Positions 13,658 to 62,670 of a stretch of 64,000 nt of DNA are shown piece after piece. The notes below the pieces were generated by a model. It did no database searches and was not told the DNA's origin. It was given only the letters and a program-made list of their open reading frames with translations. The first letter of the stretch is position 1. Each line of letters opens with the position of its first letter. The stretch lies in NCBI GenBank assembly GCA_951406725.2, contig OX597825.1:49662001-49726000 (forward strand), in the 5' to 3' direction. Source of the stretch: Octopus vulgaris (taxonomy: Eukaryota). Made by a program: the position numbers and the translations under genes.

Positions 13658-13750
<93 letters not shown>

Positions 13751-13751
<1 letters not shown>

Positions 13752-14448
13752 CTAAGGGTCAGACCCGATTCTGATTGGTCAACAAGTTGATGACGTCTAG
13801 CTCTGCTAGAATGGACAGGATACAAACAGGGAACAGTCATTAGTCAGAATATTGATGACGTTCTTTTCTGCTTGAATAGTCACCTAACAAGTACAGACAG
13901 GGGGCAGATCTAATGTAGCTATAAGTCGTGATTGGGCAGAATCTGGATGACGTCCCGCTATGCTTGACTAACGAAGCGACTGGTCAAGACAGGAAACAAA
14001 CAAGAGGGAGTTATAATGCAGCGATTGGTCAAAATAATGATGACGTCCCGTTCCACTTGATTAAAGCCACCTAACGAAACGATTGGTCAAAACATTGATG
14101 ACGTCACGCTACGCTAGATTGACCACCTAACAGGCATTATAAAACCGAGCATTTCACAAAAAATCACTAGAACCACCCAGCGAACTTCCACCATGGGTCA
14201 TCACAATTGCTTAAGGTAAAAATGAATTCCTCGCTCTTTCGGAAACATCAATCTTCTGTATTGACCGCTTTCCACCACTTTGATCTGTTTTTTGTATTGA
14301 ATACGTATCGCCACCGTGGGCCACTGCATCGAACACTTTGAACATATACTTCAAACTATATATCAACTATACATGAACTCTAAGATGTCTGACTCCGTTG
14401 TGTATTATAAATGAATTTCTTGTGTTTGACGGCATGAGCTGTCTCTTT
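13751..14448 (+). repeat. 5' pseudo-LTR
   Basis: Direct repeat of 18426-19143; begins right after a (TA)n tract. Confidence 0.95.
13774..14168 (+). promoter_or_regulatory. Candidate Pol II promoter: 5x (ATTGG-N12-TGACGT), TATA box and Inr-like site
   Basis: ATTGG (one ATTAG) at 13774, 13839, 13931, 14024 and 14082, each exactly 12 nt before TGACGT; TATAAAA at 14138-14144; TCACT at 14164-14168. Confidence 0.7.
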
Positions 14449-14518
14449 TTTTATATATAACTTTTTTTGATAAGGTTCATTTCAGGAACTGAAACATGTT
14501 ATAATGTATATATAAAAA
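14446..14518 (+). ncRNA. Minimal hammerhead ribozyme candidate, U3-A8 variant
   Basis: TTGATAA (14467-73), stem II GGTTC/GAACT, GAAA, palindromic ACATGT stem III, GUU site. Proximal stem I is weak; a distal TTTTTATATATA/TATATATAAAAA pairing is present. Confidence 0.55.
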
Positions 14519-14632
14519 TTAAAAATTGTATAATACAGCAGCATTTTCGAACTTCATTTTTTACAAATATATACCTACTCGTATACGAGCTAATCATATT
14601 ATAAATATCATATCACGTACGAGCTCCCGAAA

Positions 14633-16018
14633 ATGCCTGCTAAAAAAGACACCAACGACATCACCTCAATAAATGAAGAGATACTGAAAGAAATGAAAAG
14701 CATAAATTCAAACCTAACAGCAGTGTTAAACAAACTCAACTTAACACCTCGACCTTCTACACAAACTAACGAGGAAACCGAATCGAATAAAACACCCTCC
14801 GAAATATTCGAGAAAGTTGAAAATCTATGCGATACAATGACGACATTCTTCACAAACTTTACGAAACAAGAGCAACAAAAAGAAGGAACACATGAGAAGA
14901 ACCGAGCAACTTCAACATTACAAATAAAGAACCAAGTCCTCCCCCAATGGAGAACACTACAGCGAAACAGAAAATTCGCTTTTTGGAAAATGATACAAAA
15001 TCAGAATAAAGCAGAGATTTACCAAAAATGGCTAGACTCAACACCCCTAGTCATACCCCGTAAATTACAAATCAAACCCATCTCGGAAGAACCAGAAGAA
15101 CAAAGAAAACTTAGAGAAAAAATGAAGATGGAAATAGAACTACTTAAGCTGAGAGCTAAAACGAATGAAGAAAAAGTAAAAACCATAGACGAGGAAATCA
15201 ACGAAGAAGTCATCAAACTAATAGACGACAACAATACTGAAACATTAACAGCACTATGGAATGAAGAATGTGAAAAAGAGGAACTTAAGTCCCTCCAACG
15301 ATAGGAAAAGAGCGCCATCTGGTTTCTAGATTATGAAACCAACTTCAAAAATGAACACATATCCAACAACCCCTTCATAAAATTAAGCAAATCAAAACCA
15401 AATACCAATAGAACGGAACAACCACCAAGAAATCCTACCACACTCTACACCAGAAAAGTACACCTAAAACACACCCCACACTACCTACACCAACCCCAAA
15501 ACCCCTACAGAGGCCCACCACACCAGTTCGAAAATAGACATACCAACAGAGCAGAACAACCACCAAGGAATCCAAACACACTCTACACCAGAAAAATGCA
15601 TTTAAAACGCACCCCACACTACCTACACCAACCCCAAAACACTTATAGGGTCCCACCACACCATTCCACGAACCTAAGAGCCACAACATACAATACTATA
15701 AAATACAACCCACATAACCAAACCAAAACGCTACTACCAAACATCCACCCCAGGAACCAACCATACAACCATAACAAACAACAAATGCACTACGGAGGAA
15801 ACAACTACCAACACAATACACCTGAGGAACTAAGACGTAACACTAGGTTCAACAACAGACTCCAGAACAGAGCACCACAAACTCACTCTGACAATTATAA
15901 CAACATGAGACAGATAAATAATAGCTTTGAACATAACTACACCAACCATTTTTTAGACCCCACACACAGGAACAGGGACACACGATGGCAAAGGACAAAC
16001 AAAAGAAACCTCTGGTAA
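14633..16018 (+). pseudogene. PLE ORF1 (~461 codons): coiled-coil N-half, N/Q/H/P-rich C-half; one in-frame TAG at 15302
   Basis: ORFs 14633-15304 and 15596-16018 share a frame, and the sequence between them translates without further stops (EKSAIWFLDYETNF...). Contains a 46-aa tandem duplication. Confidence 0.75.
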
Positions 16019-18280
16019 TTAAGATAATCAATCTCTCAAACAAAGAACTTACACCTAACGAAATAAGCATACTCTCCAAAGGACTTAAATTTACACCCAC
16101 CCCACAACGTTCTAATTATTATGAAATGAAAGATGATATTTCGGAATTTTGCAGAAAAGTAAGACTCACCGAGGCATTTCAAGACAAACAAATAGAGGAG
16201 GACTCAATAGCTAGAAACAAGAGCAATTACACCCCCACCAAAGGTAAGAATAAAGCCTTAGACCGCTATTGTGACTACATAACTAATTTCCCGTTTCAAT
16301 TCATCAAGAAACAAAAACACAGCCCTAACTTCAACAAAAGAGAATGGAACGACCTCATCAAACTAAGAGAAGACAAAATAACAATTAAAGAGGCAGATAA
16401 GGGCAACGCGATAGTAATAATGAATACAAACAATTATAAAAATTTAGTGCTATCCCTATTAAGAGATGAAACGTATTATGAAAGGGCCCAACAGTATAAC
16501 CAGCAAAAAATAATGCATAATCTTAGGACATTAATCAACACATACCAAGAAGGACTCACGAACAAAGAAATATGAATACATCACTAACTTCAAATGCAAA
16601 TCGAGTTTGTTCTATGGTATCCCTAAGGTACACAAAAGCCAAACCATTAGAGAAACGTGCAAAACATCCACCGACACACTCATCAAAATCCCTTCACCAA
16701 ATGATCTTAAACTAAGACCGATAATAGCAGGGCCAGCATGTGAAACTCACCGCCTCAGCAATTTCTTAGACACACTTCTTAAACCTTTCCTAAAACACAT
16801 CAAAAGCTACGTAAGAGACGATATAGATATGCTCAACCACCTCCCTAAAACAGTCAATGAGAAAACCCTTCTAGTATCATTCGACGTAGTTAATCTTTAT
16901 TCTAACATCCCTCACAACCTAGGAATAGAAGCAATCACCTTCTGGCTGAATAACTACCCCTTTGAACTCCCAACTCGCATAAACAAAGACCTTATAATAG
17001 AAGGACTTAGATTCATTTTAGAGAACAATTATTTTATTTTTGACAATGATTTCTACAGGCAAAGATCGGGAACAGCGATGGGCACGCGTACTGCACCATC
17101 TTTTGCCAACCTACTGATGGGATACCTCGAGAAAATACTATACCGGATGACACTCGAGAAATATGGAAACACCTTCGCCACCTATATCCATAACAACTGG
17201 AAAAGATACCTCGATGACTGTTTCATCATCTGGGACAAAGGCATAGAGAAACTTGAGGAATTTAAAATTCTATTAAATGGAATAAATGACAATATACAAT
17301 TCACGATGGACCACAACGAAAAAGAATTACCATTTTTAGACATCCTCATTAAGATAACCGGCAACAAAATAGTGACAGATATCTACTATAAACCGACAGA
17401 CTCTAAACAGTACCTACCCTTTGATTCATGCCACCCACGACACACTAGAATAAATGTCCCTTTTTCTTTAGCTAGAAGGATTTGCACCATAATATCAGAC
17501 ACAAACACCCGACACACACGTCTCCAGGAACTTAGAACCACACTCACAAATAGAAACTATCCACAGCCCCTAATAGACAGTGCAATCCAACGGGTACTTA
17601 AATTAAGTATAGAAGACCTGAGACAAACAAAACCAAAAAAGAAAGAACAATTAAAAACCCTTCCCTACATCTCTACACACAACCCACTCAACAATGAGGC
17701 CTTCAACACCATACTACAAAGCACAGCCCTACTAAAGGGAGACCCAAAGATGAACCGGATCCTCGAAACACACACCATCATTAAAAGTAAACGGCAACCA
17801 AAATCCTTGAAAAGGATTTTAACCCAAGCTACACTGCACTCAACATCAACCACAAAACCAGCAGTTAGAAAATGTGGAAGGCCCAACTGCGGAATCTGTG
17901 TCATCTTGAAAGAAGGATCAGAATTTATACTGGAACAAGGCCACCAGTTCACCATTAGAACAAACTTCACCTGCGCATCAGAAAACTTAATTTACGTCAT
18001 AACATGCGCAGGCTGCAATAGGCAGTATATAGGCCATACAAAAAATAGCTTACGTAACAGGATGGCGGTGCATAAATCACAAATTAGAAACCCTGATTAC
18101 CGCAAAATACCGGTCAGCGGACACATAGATAGATGTGCTGGAAATGTAAATCCTAAATTTACAACTAACCCGCTCTATAAATTCAGTGACAACGCAACCT
18201 TCACACAACGCCAAAATAAAGAACTATATTTCATAAAAAGATTTAGACCAAGTTTAAACACCCTGGGCCAGGAATACTAA
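15985..18280 (+). pseudogene. PLE ORF2: reverse transcriptase and C-terminal GIY-YIG endonuclease; single +1 frameshift near 16573
   Basis: Motifs LSKGLKFTP, ADKGNAIV, FYGIPKVHK, LRPII, SFDVVNLYSNI, GTAMGT, RYLDD, LPFLD, CGRPNCGIC, LIYVITCAGC-YIG. Confidence 0.93.
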
Positions 18281-18425
18281 AACAAAAGATAAGTCCTCCG
18301 AAAAGGAGAACCAAATTTCACCACGGCCGCTACTTCAAACAGACACTCACTCTGACGGAAATATGCCTTAGTAAAAAAGGGAAAAAAATTCTTTCGTGCA
18401 AATCTGACCCTGATACATACGATAA

Positions 18426-19143
18426 GCTAAGGGTCAGACCCGATTCTGATTGGTCAACAAGTTGATGACGTCTAGCTCTGCTAGAATGGACAGGATACAA
18501 ACAGGGAACAGTCATTAGTCAGAATATTGATGACGTTCTTTTCTGCTTGAATAGTCACCTAACAAGTACAGACAGGGGCAGATCTAATGTAGCTATAAGT
18601 CGTGATTGGGCAGAATCTGGATGACGTCTCGCTATGCTTGACTAACGAAGCGACTGGTCAAGACAGGAAACAAACAGAGGGAGTTATAATGCAGCGATTG
18701 GTCAAAATAATGATGACGTCCCGTTCCACTTGATTAAAGCCACCTAACGAAACGATTGGTCAAAACATTGATGACGTCACGCTACGCTAGATTGACCACC
18801 TAACAGGCATTATAAAACCGAGCATTTCACAAAAAATCACTAGAACCACCCAGCGAACTTCCACCATGGGTCATCACAATTGCTTAAGGTAAAAATGAAT
18901 TCCTCGCTCTTTCGGAAACATCAATCTTCTGTATTGACCGCTTTACACCACTTTGATCTGTTTTTTGTATTGAATACGTATCGCCACCGTGGGCCACTGC
19001 ATCGAACACTTTGAACATATACTTCAAACTATATATCAACTATACATGAACTATATATCAACTATACATGAACTCTAAGATGTCTGACTCCGTTGTGTAT
19101 TATAAATGAATTTCTTGTGTTTGACGGCATGAGCTGTCTCTTT
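18426..19143 (+). repeat. 3' pseudo-LTR
   Basis: Direct repeat of 13751-14448, with an extra ~22-bp internal duplication near 19030-19070. Confidence 0.95.
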
Positions 19144-19308: not shown

Positions 19309-19439
19309 TATACATATATATATATATAGAAAATAGTAAAAAGTGAAAAAAACTACAGAAGGCTTAAAGGTTAAAAAAAATATATATTTGCGTCATTATG
19401 TCTGAAGAATATTAAATTTTTTTTTCTTACAATGACATA

Positions 19440-20782
19440 GTTTAGAAGAAAGACCGGTTTCGCGTTTAGCTTTTCAAATTTCTTACGACGTTATGATTAT
19501 CTTGAACAGAGTTATCTTTATGTTTATGTTTAAAAGAGTTCTAAATAAGGGGAGGTAATGAGTGATTTCTTCCGGTGTAAGGGAGATAATCGCTTAAAAT
19601 TTTAAAAAAATTCGTTTCCTTTTCCTTGGTGTGAATTTCTCTGTATCAGTATGTTGGCATGGTTAAGTCTGGGCTTGTACTTTTCAATGAAGAATGTTTC
19701 CTTGTTTAGTCTAATTTGTGTTGATGATCCGATAGCACATTGGTAAAATGGAAAGATTAAAAATTGTGGTAGTAGTTGCTTTGCGCATCTCTTAATGTGC
19801 TCACTTAAAGGTATCATTCTGTATTCTGGGAATGCAATCTGTTGTCGATGCAGTGTGCATCTACGTTTGAGTGATAGTCCCGTGGATCCCACGTAGTCTT
19901 GGTGACAGCCCGAGCATTTTATGACATAAATTATGTTTTCAGAGGCACAAGTAAAGCTAGATTTGATCTTGAATTTCTGTCCCTCTTTGAAGAGGAATTC
20001 TGATCCTTCTAGCAGGTTTGGACATGTTGCACAGTTCGATCTACCACATTTTTTTACTTTTGCATCCGTAATTTCAGAAAACAAGTGATTTAGATTGTTT
20101 GTAGCTTTTAATGATTTGGTGTATGTTTAGAATTTCCTTTAATTTGGGGTCCTTATGAAGTATTGGTAAATTCTAGGTAATGATGGTGAAGGCTTCTTTG
20201 TTTCTGGGGTTGTATGTAGATATGTAAGGTAGTATTTTCGGGGAAGGTGTGTTGTTGTGTTGAACTTTTCTTAAAGTTTCTATGTTGATTTCTGTTGCAC
20301 GTCTGATCCCATCCTCTATGAGTTGAGCTGGGTAATGTCTGTCAATTAGGGTGTTTTTGAGTTCTTGCAGTCTAAAGTTCCTGGTATTTTGTTCTGACAC
20401 TATTGTGCATATCCTTCTTGCAAGGTTGAAGGGGATGTTTGTTTTAGTGTGTCTTGGGTGGCATGAATTGAAAAGAAGGTATTGTTTGGCGTCTGTGGCT
20501 TTGTAAAAAATGTCTGTTTCTATTTTAAGGTTAATTTTTTTAATTAGTATATCCAAGAACGGGAGCTCCTTTTGGTTGTATTCCATTGTGAACTGTATAT
20601 TTGGGTTTATGCTGTTCAATAGGTTTTTAAATTTTAGGAGTTTATCTGTGTTTTCATTCCAGAGTATAAAACAATCGTCTAAGAATCGTTTCCAATTCTC
20701 TTTTATGTATTGAGAAAGGATGTTTCCAAAGATTGATAAAGATTCCTGGTAAATGATTATTTCCATGTAGCCCATTGTTAGG
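19440..20782 (-). mobile_element. 5'-truncated Neptune-type PLE (RT C-half and GIY-YIG)
   Basis: ORFs 20173-20775 (WKRFLDDCF, LPFLD) and 19602-20084 (CGRSNCATC, IIYVIKCSGC-YVG). Confidence 0.9.
19446..19484 (-). ncRNA. Minimal hammerhead ribozyme, U3-A8 variant
   Basis: Minus strand: AAGAAA T TTGAAAA GC TAAAC GC GAAA CCGG TC TTTCTT (stem I AAGAAA/TTTCTT, palindromic ACCGGT, GUC site). Confidence 0.7.
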
Positions 20783-20985
20783 GAACCAAGTGTGGCGTCG
20801 TATACAAGACAGTGCTACTGACGTTTATAGCGCCAAGAAGACATCTCTTCCAGTGGCTAACGGCACACATTCTCTTTCCGATAGGTATTTGCGAGGGGTG
20901 GTCATCGCTTCTATCTCTAGCCTTACGTGATGCATAGAGACTCGAACTTCTGGGTGGCTACCCGTCCTCAGCGTGTTTTAATTAC

Positions 20986-48465: not shown

Positions 48466-48517
<52 letters not shown>

Positions 48518-48801
48518 CAGCAATTGAGGGTAAAATTAATTAATTATTAATCAATTTCACCAAGTGTTCAGTATGCAAAGGGACCATTTAAGGCGAATTC
48601 AAATTATTACATTATATAAAAGGGCTTAGTAAAATAAATTACTTCGCCGCATACTGAACTCATTAGAAATAGCAGCTAAAAAACTTTTTTAAAGCTATTT
48701 CTAATACTTAAAGAAAATCTCTCTCATATATAGCGTTTGCTTAATTCAACTCACAAAAGTTTGGGGGTAAGGGCATTAAAAAATCAAATGCTAAGGTTAT
48801 T

Positions 48802-48853
48802 TGAGTACGTACGTTTCAAGATTAGTCAAAGCAACATTTCTCTCTTCAGCTCA
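48802..48853 (-). ncRNA. Minimal type I hammerhead ribozyme, copy 1
   Basis: Minus strand: TGAG CTGAAGA GAGA-loop-TCTT GAAA CGTACG TA CTCA; canonical core, GUA site. Confidence 0.85.
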
Positions 48854-49346
48854 TAAATTCCTTGGTTTGGATTTGGAAACACTGAAAGTAAGAACTTACC
48901 CTTTCGAAGATCCGCTCTCAACTACCAGTGCCAACGAATCCAAATAAGCAAGTGAATCATTTCTGCTCTCCCCTTTCCACCAGCGTGGGTTAAAATCATC
49001 AAACGCTATGCTTATTTCGGTAAAATCCGAAGCATTAATTAGAGGGAGATTAATTATAATTTCAGCAATTGAGGGTAAAATTAATTAATTATTAATCAAT
49101 TTCACCAAGTGTTCAGTATGCAAAGGGACCATTTAAGGCGAATTCAAATTATTACATTATATAAAAGGGCTTAGTAAAATAAATTACTTCGCCGCATACT
49201 GAACTCATTAGAAATAGCAGCTAAAAAACTTTTTTAAAGCTATTTCTAATACTTAAAGAAAATCTCTCTCATATATAGCGTTTGCTTAATTCAACTCACA
49301 AAAGTTTGGGGGTAAGGGCATTAAAAAATCAAATGCTAAGGTTATT

Positions 49347-49398
49347 TGAGTACGTACGTTTCAAGATTAGTCAAAGCAACATTTCTCTCTTCAGCTCA
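49347..49398 (-). ncRNA. Minimal type I hammerhead ribozyme, copy 2
   Basis: Identical to copy 1, offset +545. Confidence 0.85.
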
Positions 49399-49891
49399 TA
49401 AATTCCTTGGTTTGGATTTGGAAACACTGAAAGTAAGAACTTACCCTTTCGAAGATCCGCTCTCAACTACCAGTGCCAACGAATCCAAATAAGCAAGTGA
49501 ATCATTTCTGCTCTCCCCTTTCCACCAGCGTGGGTTAAAATCATCAAACGCTATGCTTATTTCGGTAAAATCCGAAGCATTAATTAGAGGGAGATTAATT
49601 ATAATTTCAGCAATTGAGGGTAAAATTAATTAATTATTAATCAATTTCACCAAGTGTTCAGTATGCAAAGGGACCATTTAAGGCGAATTCAAATTATTAC
49701 ATTATATAAAAGGGCTTAGTAAAATAAATTACTTCGCCGCATACTGAACTCATTAGAAATAGCAGCTAAAAAACTTTTTTAAAGCTATTTCTAATACTTA
49801 AAGAAAATCTCTCTCATATATAGCGTTTGCTTAATTCAACTCACAAAAGTTTGGGGGTAAGGGCATTAAAAAATCAAATGCTAAGGTTATT

Positions 49892-49943
49892 TGAGTACGT
49901 ACGTTTCAAGATTAGTCAAAGCAACATTTCTCTCTTCAGCTCA
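49892..49943 (-). ncRNA. Minimal type I hammerhead ribozyme, copy 3
   Basis: Identical to copy 1, offset +1090. Confidence 0.85.
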
Positions 49944-50092
49944 TAAATTCCTTGGTTTGGATTTGGAAACACTGAAAGTAAGAACTTACCCTTTCGAAGA
50001 TCCGCTCTCAACTACCAGTGCCAACGAATCCAAATAAGCAAGTGAATCATTTCTGCTATATATATATATGTGTGTGTGTGTATATATATATA

Positions 50093-54981: not shown

Positions 54982-55038
<57 letters not shown>

Positions 55039-57375
55039 GGAGTAAACACATAAATTTGAAACAAGGTGAAAAAAGAGTACTCAAATACCAGGGGTAGAGT
55101 ATTATGCTTTATTTGTATACAAATTATGTGAGCACATATACTGACACATATATCGAGACAAGTACGCAAACACACAAGCCCAAGTGGATACATGCATACA
55201 CATACATTCGTGTATGTATGTGCTTCAGTACAAACATACGCTCACTTACACATATACAAAGACGTATGCTTACAAATACATATTCATGCCAATACACATA
55301 TTTACATAAAATGCCTTGGATCTGACAACTTTGTTTTTTAAAATGATGAGTGCATAATAATAAAAATTAACCGAAAGACATGCAAAATATAGCACCCTAT
55401 ATTGGATTATCTATAAATTAAATACCAAAGTAAGCCTATACAATATAATAAAATGAAATAAACTTAGCCGAAGGTTTTTCCTAAGGAATATGTAGAAATA
55501 TAAACAAAATAAACAAAATATATGCACAAGACATTGCTATGCGGAATGAAATCTGCGAGGTGAATTTGGAAGCAAGAAGAATAGCTAACAATCTTAAGAT
55601 TAGCGATAGGATAGAATATCTTTCCCCACGACCATCTTTTATTACACTAAAAGACCATAAAGCCAATTTTAATAGAAACCCCAAATGCAGATTGATAAAT
55701 CCGGCTAAAACTGAGGTAGGCATTATTAGCAAATATATTTTGGACCGTATTTCAACTAAGTTAGATAGTGAATTAGATTTGAGAATTCGGAAGAATAGTA
55801 AGTCATTCATCGAGTGGTTTAAAGGGATTAGCCATAAGCATAGTTGCAGTTTTACGCAGTTCGATATTATTGACTTTTACCCGTCAGTATCTAGGGCTTT
55901 ACTCCTAAGGGCAATGGACTTCGCCAACCAGTATGTCAACATCGGTAGCTCGGAAATTGATATTATCATACATGCGAGGAAATCACTTCTTTTTTTCCGA
56001 GGATTCCACCTGGATTAAGAAGAGTGAGGATTCTCTTTTCGATGTACCGATGGGAGCATACGACGGGGCTGAGTTAAGTATGGTCATAGGAGCCTTTATT
56101 CTTCATTATCTAAAAATAGAATTCCCATTTATAGATGCAGGTTTATAAAGGGATGACGGCCTTATAGCCACCCATAATTTAAACGGCCGTGAATCAGATA
56201 GACTTAGGAAGGATCTTATTGCTTTCTTCCAAAGGATGGGCTTACGGGTTACAATAGATACCAACCTGAAAAGTGTAGATTTTTTAGATGTAAATTTTGA
56301 TATTAGCTCGGATAAATTTAAACCTTACCGTAAGCCCAATGACAAGTTATCGTATATTAGCAAAGATTCGAACCATCCGCCAGTTATTCTTAGGAACTTA
56401 GTCAGCAATGCAGGTAGAAGAATATCGTCAATTTCTTCGGATGAGGCAGCATTCCATAATACTGCACCTTATTACGATAGCGCATTAAGGAATAGTGGAT
56501 TCTCTGAGAAGATCCAGTACAACCAGCTTAATGCTGGTAGTAATGCCGCACGCAGAACTAGGACCAGGAAAGTTTTGTGGTTCAACCCAGCTTTCAATTT
56601 GGCCGTAAAAACTAACATAGGTAGGGAATTCTTGAAATTAGTCTCTAGGCATTTTAAGCAGGACCATAAATTTTATAGAATATTTAATAGAAGAACCCTT
56701 AGGATTAACTATTCTTGTTGCAGGAATTTCGCCTCTTACATTAGCCGACACAATAGGAATTTAATTGATATTAAGCATGGTGCCGAACCCCTTAAGAAAT
56801 GCAATTGTAAAGATGAATCCTCCTGTCCGTTGGAAGGGAAATGTTTGGTAAAAGGGGTCGTTTATAGAGCCAAGGAGCAAATAGAAGGATCATCTGAATA
56901 TAAGACTTATACAGGGGCTTCGGAAAATTCGTTTAAAACGCGATTTTATTCGCATAAAAATTCAATTAGATACCCAGAAAATAGGAAGAAGACCAGCCTA
57001 GCAAAATATGTCTGGGAACTAAAAGAAAAGGAAGCCCCACTTTTCAACCTGACATGGAGCATTCTGGATAGAGCGGCACCGTACAGGCACGGGGCTCACT
57101 AGAAAAATTTAAATGCAATCTTTGTTTGTTATAAACATTTTATATTTTATTCAAAGACAATAATTCTTTGAATCAAAAAAGCGAACTTTTGAACTAATGC
57201 AGGCACGCAGCCAAATTCAAAATTTTAAAAACGATGTTGTCAAATCCTAGGCATTTTTATGTAAATATGTGTATTCGCATGAATATGTATTTGTAAGCAT
57301 ACGTCTTTGTATATGTGTAAGTGAGCGTATGTTTGTACTGAAGCACATACATACACGAATGTATGTGTATGCATG

Positions 57376-57927
57376 TATTAAAATTGGCTTTATGGTCTTT
57401 TAGTGTAATAAAAGATGGTCGTGGGGAAAGATATTCTATCCTATCGCTAATCTTAAGATTGTTAGCTATTCTTCTTGCTTCCAAATTCACCTCGCAGATT
57501 TCATTCCGCATAGCAATGTCTTGTGCGTTTATTTTGTTTATATTTCTACATATTCCTTAGGAAAAACCTTCGGCTAAGTTTATTTCATTTTATTATATTG
57601 TATAGGCTTACTTTGGTATTTAATTTATAGATAATCCAATATAGGGTGCTATATTTTGCATGTCTTTCGGTTAATTTTTATTATTATGCACTCATCATTT
57701 TAAAAACAATGTTGTCAGATCCTAGGCATTTTATGTAAATATGTGTATTGGCATGAATATGTATTTGTAAGCATACGTCTTTGTATATGTGTAAGTGAGC
57801 GTATGTTTGTACTGAAGTACATACATACACGAATGTATGTGTATGCATGTATCCACTTGGGCTTGTGTGTTTGCGTACTTGTCTCGATATATGTGTCAGT
57901 ATATGTGCTCACATAATTTGTATACAA
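57376..57927 (-). repeat. Inverted duplicate of ~55114-55673
   Basis: Identical ORF starts (MRNEICEVNLE..., [10 protein letters not shown]...) appear on opposite strands. Confidence 0.92.
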
Positions 57928-58611
57928 AAACTCATAGCGTATAACCTTTTCTTCTTTTTTCCTTTTCTCTTTTTCTTTTTGTCTCTCTTCCTTTCTTTCG
58001 TTTTTTCTCTCCCTATTCGTTACTTGTATAGAGTCTTGTAACTTTACGTCCCGCGTCCCCCTCCCTTACTTATGTCTTTAGCTTTATGCTGTAAATAAGA
58101 ACGCCCCTTCCCCATCCATGAATTTAGCTTATAATCTATATGGATACAGTGATTTTGCATGCGAGCTAGATTGCATATACATATGTGTACATGCATATGT
58201 GTGTATATTATAGTTTTGTATTTATATGTCTGTATATGTATGTGGTCTGCGGACATCTATCTGTGTATGTTGATGTATATATGTATAGTTTAGTATGAGT
58301 ATGTACTGTTGTGAAATATTTTAATGCATTTTAATATTTTAATTTCAATTTCCATGTATTAATTATATTTTCTTTATTAATGAGAATATGTATTTTAACC
58401 AAAGATTCGATGTAAGGTTTTTTCCTCGACTTTTATAATTTATATATATATATATATATTTTTTTTAAATATTTTATATTAAGCTCATTTTTGTTTATCG
58501 CTCGAAAATGACCGTTATTTGAAAGGACCAATCAAACAAGTCCATTTTTAAAGGTGTAGCGTTTATACTAGTCTTGATAGAATTGGCATATCGGTTCTAT
58601 TTTAACAAAAA

Positions 58612-58649
58612 CTGTCCGACGAACGGGAACGTGAAACTCAGACTTACAG
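58612..58649 (+). ncRNA. Hammerhead ribozyme candidate (C4 variant) at the PLE 3' end
   Basis: CTGT CCGACGA ACG GGAA CGT GAAA CTCAGAC TT ACAG; the homologous minus copy near 46228-46265 has CTCTGAG TA ACAG. Confidence 0.6.
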
Positions 58650-58682
58650 GTTTTGTTGAATTTTCTGCTGCTTTTAGATAAA

Positions 58683-58769
<87 letters not shown>

Positions 58770-58777
58770 CAAACACA

Positions 58778-60255
58778 TGTCGATGCAGAGTGCATTTGCT
58801 TTTGAGTGATAATCCCGTGGATCCTATGTAGATTTGGTGGCGGTTCGAGTATCTTATAAATACATAAATCAGGTTTTCTGAGGAACAAATAAAGTCAGTT
58901 TGATTTTGAATTTTTCTCCCTCTTCGAACGAAAAAGAATTCTGATTCTTCTGCATGTTGCGCAGTTTGGTCGACCACATTTTTTCACTTTTGCGTCCGTT
59001 AATTTAGAAAATAAGTGCTTTTGTGAGGATCTTTTTTAGTAATTTCGGTTGCTTGTGGCTTTTAATGATCTTATGCGTGTGTAAAATTCCTTTAATTTGA
59101 TGTCTTTGTGCAGCAGAGGTAACTTTTGGGTGATGGTGGGGAAGGCTTCTTCGTTTCTGTGGTTGTATGCGGTTATGTACGGCAGTATTTTCGGGGAAGA
59201 TGTGTTGCTGTGTTTTCTCAAGTTCGATTTGTGTTACACGTCTGATTCCATCCTCTATGAGTTGAACTGGGTAGTGTCTGCAAATCTAAAGTCTCTTGTA
59301 TTTTTTCTGACACTATTCTGCTACTTGCAATATTGAAGGGGATGTTTGTTTTGGTCTGTCTTGGGTAGCATGAATTAAATAGTTGATATTGTTTGGCGTC
59401 TGTGGTTTTGTAAAATATATCTGTTTCTATTTTTAGGTTTATTTTTTTTAATTAGTATATCCAAGAATGGGAGCTCCTTTTGGTTGTATTCCATTGTGAA
59501 CTGTATTTTGGGGTTGACGCTGTTCAATAATCGTTTGAATTTCAGGAGTTTGTCTGTTTTCGTTCCAGAGGATGAAACAGTCGTCTAGGAATCTTTTCCA
59601 ATTTTCATTTATGAATTGGAAAAGAGGGTTTTCAGAGGAAGATAAAGATTCCTGGTATATTATTATGTCCAGATAGCCTATTGTTAGGTTCACAATGACC
59701 GGGACAGCCCTAGTTCCCATGGCAAGCTCGGCGTTTTGTCAATAAAACGTGTTGTGAAACATAGTGGTTGTTTCTTAGGATGAATTCAACCGATTCACTT
59801 ATGAATACTTTACTGATCATTTCTGGTATTTCTTCCGGATATTTGTCCAGTCAGAACTGAATTGCCCCAAGCCCATAATTATGCGGTATACTGGTATATA
59901 AATTAATCACATCAAATGAAACCATAGTTGTCTCTTCCTTGACATTTTTGGGAGGTGATTCAACATGTCCAAGTCTTCTCTGATGTAAATATTGATGTGT
60001 TTAAGGAAGAGTTGCAGGAGAATGTCCATAAATAGACCTTGTCCGTGTGCTTTACAGGCTGGTACAGCTATAATGGGTCGTAATTTTAGGTCCCCTGGGT
60101 TTGGCGTATGTATGTACGTCTTCGGTTATTCTTTAATGGTTTTATTTGCAATATCGCTTTTGTGGATTTTGGGTAGACCGTAGAAAAGACTAGGTTTGCA
60201 TTTAAAATTTGTTGAATAGTCAATTTCTTTGGTTGTCAGTTTTTTCCATGGGTTT
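58778..60255 (-). mobile_element. Degenerate Neptune-type PLE fragment
   Basis: KEIDYSTNFKCKPSLFYGLPKIHK, MGTRA, WKRFLDDCF, FICSSENLIYV..YIGSTG; close to the 19.4-20.8 kb copy. Confidence 0.88.
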
Positions 60256-60467
60256 TAATTAGTGAAGACAAGGTGTTCATTATTTGTTGCGGAGTGTGTT
60301 TGGTGAATTTTGTTGTGATATTGACTGTCATTCGGCATGGAGATTACATATACGTATGTTTTGAATTCGTTGGTACTGATCATTGGATATAGTTTGTCTG
60401 ATGTTACTTGAATCGGATAGGTATGTTCAATTTTTTCAGTGCTCTCAAATATAAGAACCTGAAATAT

Positions 60468-60547
60468 TGTGCTGAGGAGGAGAGTGATCGAATGGAAATG
60501 TGATTTTTGCATTTTTCATATATATCTAACTCAGAAACGAGTCCACA
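60468..60547 (+). ncRNA. Hammerhead ribozyme with long stem II
   Basis: TGTG CTGAGGA [GGAG..ATGGAAATGTGA/TTGCATTTTTCAT..CTC]A GAAA CGAG TC CACA. Confidence 0.7.
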
Positions 60548-60833
60548 GCTAATCAAATGCCGAGTGAATTTCGTTGTTTTTCTTCTCTACCTACGTGAAT
60601 TGTTTTGAGTATATGTTGTCTGGGAGTTTCTTTTTATAGTACAAGAACTAGCTAGGTTCTTTGGCTGCTATTTCTAAAGTTCGGTATGTGGTGAAGCAAA
60701 CTTTGCTGAACCCTAGTTATAATTATACACATAATTATAAAAATATTGTTTAAGTTTACCGAAAATGGTCCTTTTAACATGCCGAATACTACTTGGTGGA
60801 ATTATTAATTATTAATTAATTAATTTTACCCTT

Positions 60834-60884
<51 letters not shown>

Positions 60885-60885
<1 letters not shown>

Positions 60886-61170
60886 CAATTCCAGTGTGGA
60901 AGGTGTTTATAAGCCATTTAAGAAACACCCAAAACCGTTAGATTCACTTCAACATTTAAATTTAATATGTCAAAATATTTTCGTCGCTTTGAGACCGTGA
61001 CCTGTTCTCTCACAAAATTCCGTGCTGCACGGAATTTTGTCTCTAAACAGGTCGCAGTCTCAAAGCGACGAAAATATTTTGACAAATTAAATTTAAATGT
61101 TGAAGTGAATCTAAGGGATTTTGTGTGTTTCTTAGATGGCTTATAAACACATTCCATGCTGCAATTATTT
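60885..61170. repeat. ~285-bp near-perfect palindrome (inverted pLTR-like pair)
   Basis: Centre AATTCCGTGC T GCACGGAATT at ~61026; arms match outward to ~60885 and ~61168. Confidence 0.9.
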
Positions 61171-61254: not shown

Positions 61255-61848
61255 GTTCAGATGAATATGGTACTTAAGTTAAAGGCACAAGAATTTAGTA
61301 TGGTATTATCCGTATAATTTAAAATAAGGTGATTATAATCAAAATAAGCAACAAGAGTGTCCAGAGGAAAAGCAGTTCAATCGTTTCATGCGACTGCATT
61401 TAATTGAACAATGCAAACATTACATCAATTTAAGATGTAGACCAATCTTCAGCTGCATAAAAATAAAGAATTTAGTTAAATTCGAATGACTCATTTGTAT
61501 AATTTTCTTTTTCTCAAAAATCACCAAGGAGATAGACAAAGAACATATTTTATCAACAACATCACACTTGTAACTGAGATTTTTTTTTAAAAAGTCAATG
61601 CTTATCACTGATTATTTTTTTTTATTTAGGCATGTTCTATGTCTATCTACTTATTCTCTTGGCGATTTTGGAGAAAAAGGTAATTATACAAATACGTCCT
61701 TCGAATTTAACTAAATTCTATATTTTTCAGCAGCTGAAGATTTCTCTACATTTCAAATTAATGTAATGTATGCATTGTTCAATTAAATGCAGTCGCATGA
61801 AACGATCGTACTGCATTACCTCTGGATATCTTTGTTGCTAATTTTGAT

Positions 61849-61850
<2 letters not shown>
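61255..61850. mobile_element. Inverted pLTR-like pair, each arm with a hammerhead-like motif
   Basis: Minus copy 61372-61456 and plus copy 61730-61814; same family as 25842-26600. Confidence 0.8.
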
Positions 61851-61890
<40 letters not shown>

Positions 61891-61949
61891 TATATATATA
61901 CATGTATATGTATACATATATAGATATATAGATATACATATATATAAAT

Positions 61950-62670
61950 ATATAAGGGTAACATAAAATTCAAGAAAAATGTTCTGCCACCAGCGGTCAA
62001 GTGAGAAAATAGAAATAGTCACAGACTATATGATACATTCAACAAAATATTAAGGGATGACCCTGAGAAGGTCGTTCGACTCACTTGAAAAGAGCAGCTA
62101 AAACTCAAAACCTCAAAAAAATAGTAGTAATTCTGAAATTAGAGGAAAATAAAAAACATTTATCCCCTTCAAACTTTGTACCCTGCAAGGTTTGAACATC
62201 TTCACGCAATCAAATTAAATTAAATTAAATTAAATCCGTTTACGTTTGGCTTCTCTCGTCAGCAAAGTCACCAAAATAGGAGGCAGATATATATACAAAC
62301 GAGGCTACACCATCTAAACCCCGGGTCTATATATCGTAAATTTTCGAATTCACCATAATCGCGCCATCTACTCCGCAGCAAATATAAGCTGCTGATACAA
62401 ATTTCAGAATTAGTCAAAAATTCATTAATCAATCAATATAAGGGTAACATAAAATTCAAGAAAAATTTTCTGCCACCAGCGGTCAAGTGAGAAAATAGAA
62501 ATAGTCACAGACTATATGATACATTCAACAAAATATTAAGGAATGACCCTGAGAAGGTCGTTCGACTCACTTGAAAAGAGCAGCTAAAACTCAAAACCGC
62601 AAAAAAATAGTAGTAATTCTGAAACTAGAGGAAAATAAAAAAATAGTAATTCTGAAACTAGAGGAAAATA
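61950..62670 (-). repeat. Partial tandem repeat, 486-bp unit (about 1.4 copies)
   Basis: AGGGTAACATAAAATTCAAG at 61955 and 62441; flanked by (TA)n. Confidence 0.9.

Follow-up and report, generated by a model that had tools for sequence, protein, structure and literature searches.

What is the role of an RNA fold that recurs, with changed sequence and kept pairing, downstream of the hammerhead ribozymes of three divergent repeat families in a single stretch of the Octopus vulgaris genome? The window, i.e., the whole stretch of 64,000 nucleotides analyzed here (contig OX597825.1, positions 49,662,001 to 49,726,000), belongs to a 2.8 Gb, AT-rich genome in which (TA)n arrays and Penelope-like elements (PLEs) abound. 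A preliminary description, made from the letters of the window alone, had claimed a shared multi-stem architecture for three hammerhead-linked repeat families (A, B and C), and we recovered this architecture in every place in which it had been reported.

A recurrent RNA domain in hammerhead-bearing retrozymes

A covariance model of the domain detects exactly six strong sites in the window at 103–131 bits, with the next best match at 15 bits, the window copies having been part of its training set (Table 1). In the genome as a whole, the 3′ half of the motif, used as a pattern, has 4,666 matches versus 17 for the reversed control, an excess indicating that the motif is not a product of chance; a 5′ pattern of the C-like version has 784 matches versus none for its control. 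Looser patterns and model searches uncovered additional families, and about 20 families or subfamilies bear the motif, being non-coding, hammerhead-bearing tandem repeats lodged in (TA)n arrays. Left out of this count is family I (loci L239–L243), a hammerhead repeat with a similar last box ahead of (TA)n, a different fold and two ends of its own. A weak model match at L241:5105-5247 looks like chance and was likewise rejected as a motif copy.

With respect to Rfam, the motif was rightly called unassigned in the preliminary description: a scan of the window returned nothing at the gathering score and, near the motif, only weak matches far below the threshold. Its host elements, however, belong to a described class, the non-LTR retrozymes, and the two-end pattern considered below is that of the described Penelope tail. 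The domain itself is without description in the titles or the opening of the abstracts of the open full-text literature, subscription papers lying outside the scope of this search. The motif is a genuine covarying RNA domain, apparently new to a known class of elements and tied to a known but poorly explained feature.

The hosts display the characteristic features of non-LTR retrozymes, viz., tandem units of some hundred base pairs, a type I hammerhead per unit and a non-coding sequence. No ORF of 90 amino acids lies within the A and B units, the sole frame touching the C unit stems from an adjoining LINE fragment, and no match to PLE proteins was found inside the motif units. The full family A unit, represented by tandem copies elsewhere in the genome, measures ~590 bp. 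Arrays of more than 10 units occur, and copies are dispersed in (TA)n on all large contigs; a first look at the genome yielded 2,283, 1,389 and 1,840 candidates for A, B and C, respectively, of which 40 each were scored. The type I hammerheads stand 100–200 nt upstream of the motif on the same strand. This arrangement, as previously claimed, holds for A and B, whereas the C copy of the window has one core base changed; the hammerhead is intact in two other C copies tested. A pattern for the hammerhead was matched in A, B, other copies of C, H and N; the window C copy and one stretch of H2 gave no match.

Some additional features of this region deserve mention. A splice-donor-like site is found upstream of the hammerhead in A (60440-60460, +) and B (49960-49990, −), and the 5′ box of the motif has an acceptor-like run, such that an intron across the hammerhead is possible; no spliced joint was found in the sequencing-run contigs. 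Two palindromic MITE-like elements (60907-61146 and 61335-61851) lie between the A and C insertions.

Non-LTR retrozymes of animals have been described previously (Cervera and de la Pena, 2020, PMC7229834; Li, Clavereau and Pollet, 2026, 10.64898/2026.07.22.740005) and share with the motif hosts the organization as non-coding, few-hundred-bp tandem repeats of low GC content with one type I hammerhead per unit, the many dispersed copies and the co-occurrence with PLEs. A conserved 3′ domain, two fixed ends and head-to-head insertions are not described in the available portions of these two publications. In Xenopus, homology to pLTRs has been found for a part of the retrozyme families (10.64898/2026.07.22.740005), whereas we found no homologous pLTR for the motif hosts among ~8 PLE families.

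Table 1. Features of the domain, its host elements and the adjoining fragment (positions are those of the window)
Feature	Position	Strand	Basis
Motif, family A	60662-60840	+	covariance model
Motif, family B, three copies	49609-49768, 49064-49223, 48519-48678	−	covariance model
Motif, family C, two copies	62433-62586, 61947-62100	−	covariance model
Family A retrozyme copy, 5′-truncated, ending at the distal site ahead of (TA)n	60350-60836	+	
Predicted type I hammerhead motif, family A	60467-60549	+	pattern
Family B array (545-bp unit), almost three units long and flanked by (TA)n runs	48513-50057	−	
Predicted hammerheads, family B	49943-49892, 49398-49347, 48853-48802	−	
Family C array, 486-bp unit	61954-62670	−	
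Predicted hammerhead, family C, one core base changed	~62269-62172	−	
Conserved, mostly unpaired 5′ box ahead of P1	60662-60675	+	
P1, 5′ strand (partner 60777-60787)	60679-60689	+	folds, alignment
P3 hairpin with 3-bp basal extension; first anchor hairpin	60690-60712	+	folds, alignment
AU-rich strand with internal insertion end; putative RT start 1	60713-60755	+	end mapping
Small hairpin P4; its 5′ strand doubles as the 3′ partner of the earlier P2	60758-60769	+	
P1, 3′ strand	60777-60787	+	folds, alignment
Terminal hairpin P5; second anchor hairpin	60795-60830	+	folds
AU-rich distal insertion end, putative RT start 2, leading into the (TA)n target	60831-60884	+	
Neptune-type RT-EN fragment, decayed and truncated, head to head with the A copy	58770-60349	−	

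Architecture of the fold

Folds of single copies and consensus folds agree on the order of the elements: an unpaired 5′ box, a junction closed by P1, a linker of 4–8 nt, the hairpin P5, and a CU with an AU-rich strand. The junction closed by P1 (8–11 bp) comprises P3 with three basal pairs, again a CU with an AU-rich strand, the small hairpin P4 and a U-rich linker, the helices being taken from individual folds rather than from a per-family helix table. Conserved across copies are the closing pairs and the following CU at both P3 and P5; the 5′ box aside, the motif has few invariant unpaired bases.

This picture retains P1 and P3 as originally drawn, both of which occur in the minimum-energy fold of each of the three families in the window (z-scores of −3.7, −6.6 and −2.3). 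The helix originally named P2 has a more ambiguous standing: its strands are complementary in A and B, but it competes with the 3-bp extension of P3 and with P4. In the A/B-like alignment 88% of its cells are paired versus 95.8% for the P3 helix and 100% for P4, it does not appear in the consensus fold of the C-like group, and we rejected it as the main helix, the P3 extension together with P4 being the stronger. In a single lineage, one column covaries with both of its partners, and, judging from the sequences, a switch between the P2 and the P3/P4 pairings is possible. Other parts of the earlier outline have to be redrawn. Its last two boxes, listed as separate entities, pair with each other and constitute the two feet of P5; the six-letter box before the 3′ strand of P1, listed as one element, corresponds to different parts of the fold, overlapping with the 3′ strand of P4 in A and B and forming the 5′ strand in C; and the last box, listed as the terminus, is not where insertions end, this being ~10–20 nt beyond it or at a second, internal site.

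Covariation and strandedness

In a MAFFT alignment of 18 A/B-like copies, not fitted to structure, 95.5% of the cells are paired, with double changes at 7 of 32 pairs; slid partners pair at 31–42%, and none of 500 shuffles reaches the observed cell count. With training restricted to the A/B group, a model recovers full-length copies of the C, H, N, M and J groups on the hammerhead strand, with 19 of 20 chosen copies passing an E-value of 0.01. The broad alignment, which was fitted to the structure and therefore leans towards it, and for which shuffling takes no account of relatedness, has double changes in 25 of 29 pairs and 93.5% of its cells paired, P4 being weak across families (77% paired). 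An independent check on covariation comes from the energies of P1: the best helix averages −11.7 kcal/mol within nine families, whereas 54 combinations across groups average −4.8 kcal/mol, with −12.8 kcal/mol for the most stable of them.

The placement of the motif on the hammerhead strand, which had been argued from G-U wobbles, is borne out by the model score of B (122 bits versus 12 on the opposite strand) and by the better folding of the sense strand in 10 of 11 copies. However, antisense folds are stable too, and in the window C copy the two are level. Sense and antisense are also nearly level in families Q and R, and antisense is the better in L317.

Insertions end at two sites

Arrays stop at two places, an internal one behind P3 and a distal one behind P5, both 10–20 nt behind the hairpin. 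When ends were scored anywhere in the unit, all 39 ends of family B fell at these two sites (29 distal, 10 internal), as did 21 of the 23 ends of family C (16 distal, 5 internal, 2 other), and three further TA-rich runs within these units were without insertion ends. The median distance from the landmark to the microsatellite behind it is 11 nt at either site (range 2–25 nt for 43 internal and 1–40 nt for 89 distal ends), the scoring of microsatellite onset and of end pairing being confined to ends at the two landmarks, which are spaced 94–113 nt apart; a microsatellite follows 83 of 87 distal ends. The ends vary in position by several bases within AU-rich sequence that is not conserved, and both sites are read through in tandem arrays. 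Contigs from four sequencing runs (four organism codes) cover the B unit, and their (TA)n loose ends at 49600 (X17) and 49701 (X3) are the two end sites; no run containing these sequences is listed as RNA. These elements behave as non-autonomous PLEs both in inserting into microsatellites, as for Neptune, and in having two ends, less cleanly so in family S. The interval between the two sites is the Penelope ‘tail’, here 90–110 nt long.

The insertions in head-to-head orientation couple the two sites to each other. One internal and one distal end were found in 32 of 32 such insertions with both ends at the landmarks, 26 of them from queries needing the distal part and the other six from loci picked regardless of end, with four of the pairs coming from two near-identical loci. 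Family S, an older family found later, with copies ~90% identical, that was not used for the rule, has 13 head-to-head insertions, of which six are cleanly one-of-each and one probably so, two end at a TA-like run in P1 that lies ~40 nt upstream of the internal site, and four are irregular; no internal-internal insertion is seen among the 13. The arms overlap in 23 of 29 insertions (18 of these 23 being at least 98% identical), leaving six without overlap. Of 12 family B junctions read by eye, only three are symmetric to within 10 nt, which argues against simple fold-back.

Two individual joins may be recorded here. In the head-to-head insertion at L246:4300-4960, the arms differ in the P1/P3 region, as if they came from two subfamilies. 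In the window, the A copy meets an RT-EN fragment head to head at 60350 with no (TA)n run between them, possibly as a two-RNA insertion or a nested insertion.

An inverted 5′-truncated arm and a tail of 30–40 bp at one end have been reported for PLEs (Craig et al., 2021, PMC8557442; Arkhipova et al., PMC3846280), and the purified Poseidon protein from Anolis cleaves both strands and extends them (Frangieh et al., 2024, PMC11167929). Its reverse transcriptase (RT) initiates at two internal positions of the RNA, the tail being the interval between them, and a dimer has been predicted (PMC11167929). As far as the available portions of these reports go, the motif hosts resemble Poseidon and other PLEs in having two ends downstream of the hammerhead, a tail at one end only, an inverted 5′-truncated arm, AT-rich targets and an inner start enclosed by a helix. 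They differ in the length of the tail (90–110 versus 30–40 nt) and in the nature of the starts, which are AU-rich strands able to pair with the target in the motif and an AC-rich loop unlike the target in Poseidon. Unlike in Poseidon, the domain is non-coding and conserved by covariation over ~20 families or subfamilies, although the Poseidon fold in Fig. S2C of that report may bear on how similar the two folds are.

Autonomous PLEs and the source of the RT

The preliminary description had raised the possibility that autonomous PLEs carry the motif at their 3′ ends. None was found in the 3′ or 5′ repeats of the ~8 families sampled, and no 3′ homology to an autonomous pLTR was seen in these families, the genome having more families than this sample. 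The families examined include PLE1, D, D2, a Poseidon family and 20 loci chosen from 150 matches to a DKG-region query. Models R1 and R2 match only nested retrozyme insertions in autonomous PLE loci, and the PLE families examined for ends make two-ended insertions without the motif fold, with shorter tails of ~40 nt or ~73 nt. The Neptune-type fragment facing the A copy was rejected as a parent: its relatives have a different 3′ end without the motif, and it is a neighbor. At L257:4413-4600 and L317:4835-4990, the distal end of a retrozyme is joined to a 5′-truncated Neptune ORF on the same strand without a microsatellite, possibly by a template jump of a Neptune RT or by a later insertion; among 40 scored copies, the L317 join occurs only once. 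Either the parent element lies outside the sampled families or the domain is the retrozymes’ own.

The window also houses other PLEs. A near-complete Neptune-type element (13750-19142, +) has RT and GIY-YIG domains by Pfam and several hammerhead-like repeats in its pLTR, and its family ends at 14573 and 14613, giving a 40-nt tail. A truncated Neptune-type copy (19320-20814, −) has a degenerate hammerhead core common to its relatives and a tail of ~43 nt. The left arm of a Poseidon-type insertion (55037-58684) ends at the distal site of its family and the right arm at the inner site; this family is very young, with many intact frames, and has a tail of ~73 nt. Elsewhere in the genome, a Neptune-type family with intact frames (L311, L312, L314, L322 and L323) has as its 3′ UTR a long (TG)/(TA)-rich tract common to the copies. 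No relative of the PLE1 RT-EN was found in the PDB.

A two-start model and its alternatives

We propose, with a probability of roughly two in three (0.68), that the conserved 3′ RNA domain positions a borrowed Penelope-like RT at two start sites, likely as a dimer. An RT-recognition signal was among the functions suggested for the motif at the outset, and it is here both supported and sharpened, in that the fold brackets both insertion-end sites. According to this proposal, the endonuclease would cut both strands of the (TA)n array, and an RT dimer would bind the domain with one subunit at P5 and the other at P3. Each of these hairpins would place the AU-rich strand behind it in an active site, and each DNA 3′ end would pair with the AU-rich strand beside a hairpin to prime a cDNA, one per site. 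The two 5′-truncated cDNAs would then be joined head to head, and as a consequence the 90–110 nt interval between the starts would appear as a tail on one side only. Tandem arrays would result from read-through of a multimeric or circular RNA, which they would require; arm overlap would need either such an RNA or strand displacement. The driver would most likely be a Neptune-type element. As a more speculative extension, which we consider doubtful as a whole, the domain may be a telomerase-RNA-like scaffold with two anchors that seats both active sites of the Penelope RT dimer on one RNA, with concerted twin priming from both cut ends of the (TA)n array. It would then be an RT-capturing module of the retrozymes’ own, unrelated to any autonomous pLTR, and might switch between the P3/P4 and P2 pairings during copying.

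The occurrence of one end of each kind and of near-identical, overlapping arms is also predicted by a scheme in which the RT starts at the distal site alone and the internal end is made on DNA: the first cDNA would fold back or undergo a template switch, and this intermediate would then be cut by the endonuclease at the internal AU-rich site. Such a scheme has precedents in the available portions of the literature, in which the tail was ascribed to EN-mediated resolution (PMC8557442) and palindromic junctions were read as self-priming (PMC3846280), and it accommodates the three symmetric junctions of family B. However, the other nine junctions are asymmetric, six of the 29 insertions are without arm overlap, both ends lie equally far behind a similar hairpin, the G-U-tolerant pairing favors the RNA strand, and both tail ends are reported as RT starts in the sole PLE tested in vitro (PMC11167929); we hence regard a DNA-level origin of the internal end as unlikely. 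Somewhat less probable still is that the fold is kept for RNA stability, circularization or export, with the ends being those places at which unpaired AU-rich RNA anneals to (TA)n and with no specific contact between RT and hairpin. Both end regions are AU-rich and predicted to be unpaired, two family S insertions end at the TA-like run in P1, and two-ended insertions are also made by autonomous PLEs that lack the motif fold, as such passive annealing would have it. Yet no insertion ends at the other TA runs of the B and C units, and neither the one-of-each ends per insertion nor the conservation, at both hairpins, of the closing pairs and of the CU behind them would be explained. The more general notion of a stability element, also put forward initially, is compatible with the data but does not account for the two ends.

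A further early suggestion, a second catalytic RNA, would make the motif a self-cleaving ribozyme or a nuclease site that creates RNA 3′ ends, and a covarying multibranch RNA to which the array ends map is indeed what this would lead one to expect. The scatter of these ends over several bases of unconserved AU-rich sequence, the arrays of more than 10 units that read through both sites, the lack of an Rfam match and the paucity of invariant unpaired bases outside the 5′ box speak against it, and we deem it highly improbable.

Beyond the Poseidon system, the domain invites comparison with two others. The 3′ end of Terminon/Athena elements (Arkhipova, 2019, PMC6431247) also presents a fold beside a short stretch pairing with the DNA primer, although in the available portion of that report the hammerhead itself provides the fold and a telomeric repeat the stretch, whereas the motif is a separate fold 100–200 nt downstream of the hammerhead with (TA)n as its target. 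We rejected an identification with this fold: the motif copies are dispersed in (TA)n, not telomeric, and the C-run behind each hairpin is partly paired. Telomerase RNA has a template region with a template-boundary hairpin and a core-enclosing helix; as an analogy only, the motif parallels it in possessing an unpaired priming strand, a hairpin on the 5′ side of that strand and an enclosing long-range helix. It differs in showing no repeated copying of a short template and no stop at the hairpin, the copies running through the hairpins for hundreds of bases, and with no Rfam match either, we rejected it as a telomerase RNA core.

Implications for retrozymes and PLEs

The motif bears on how PLEs choose their RT starts, on the one-sided tail and on the borrowing of an RT by retrozymes, questions for which one element has been studied in vitro. 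It offers a 160-nt non-coding RNA with natural compensatory variants in ~20 families or subfamilies and two mapped end sites, and our preferred reading, that of an RT positioned at two starts, makes the sharp prediction of one RT start per DNA end. Further, because the RTs of PLEs are the sister group of telomerase RTs, a design that combines a hairpin with a priming strand would bear on the origin of telomerase RNA handling.
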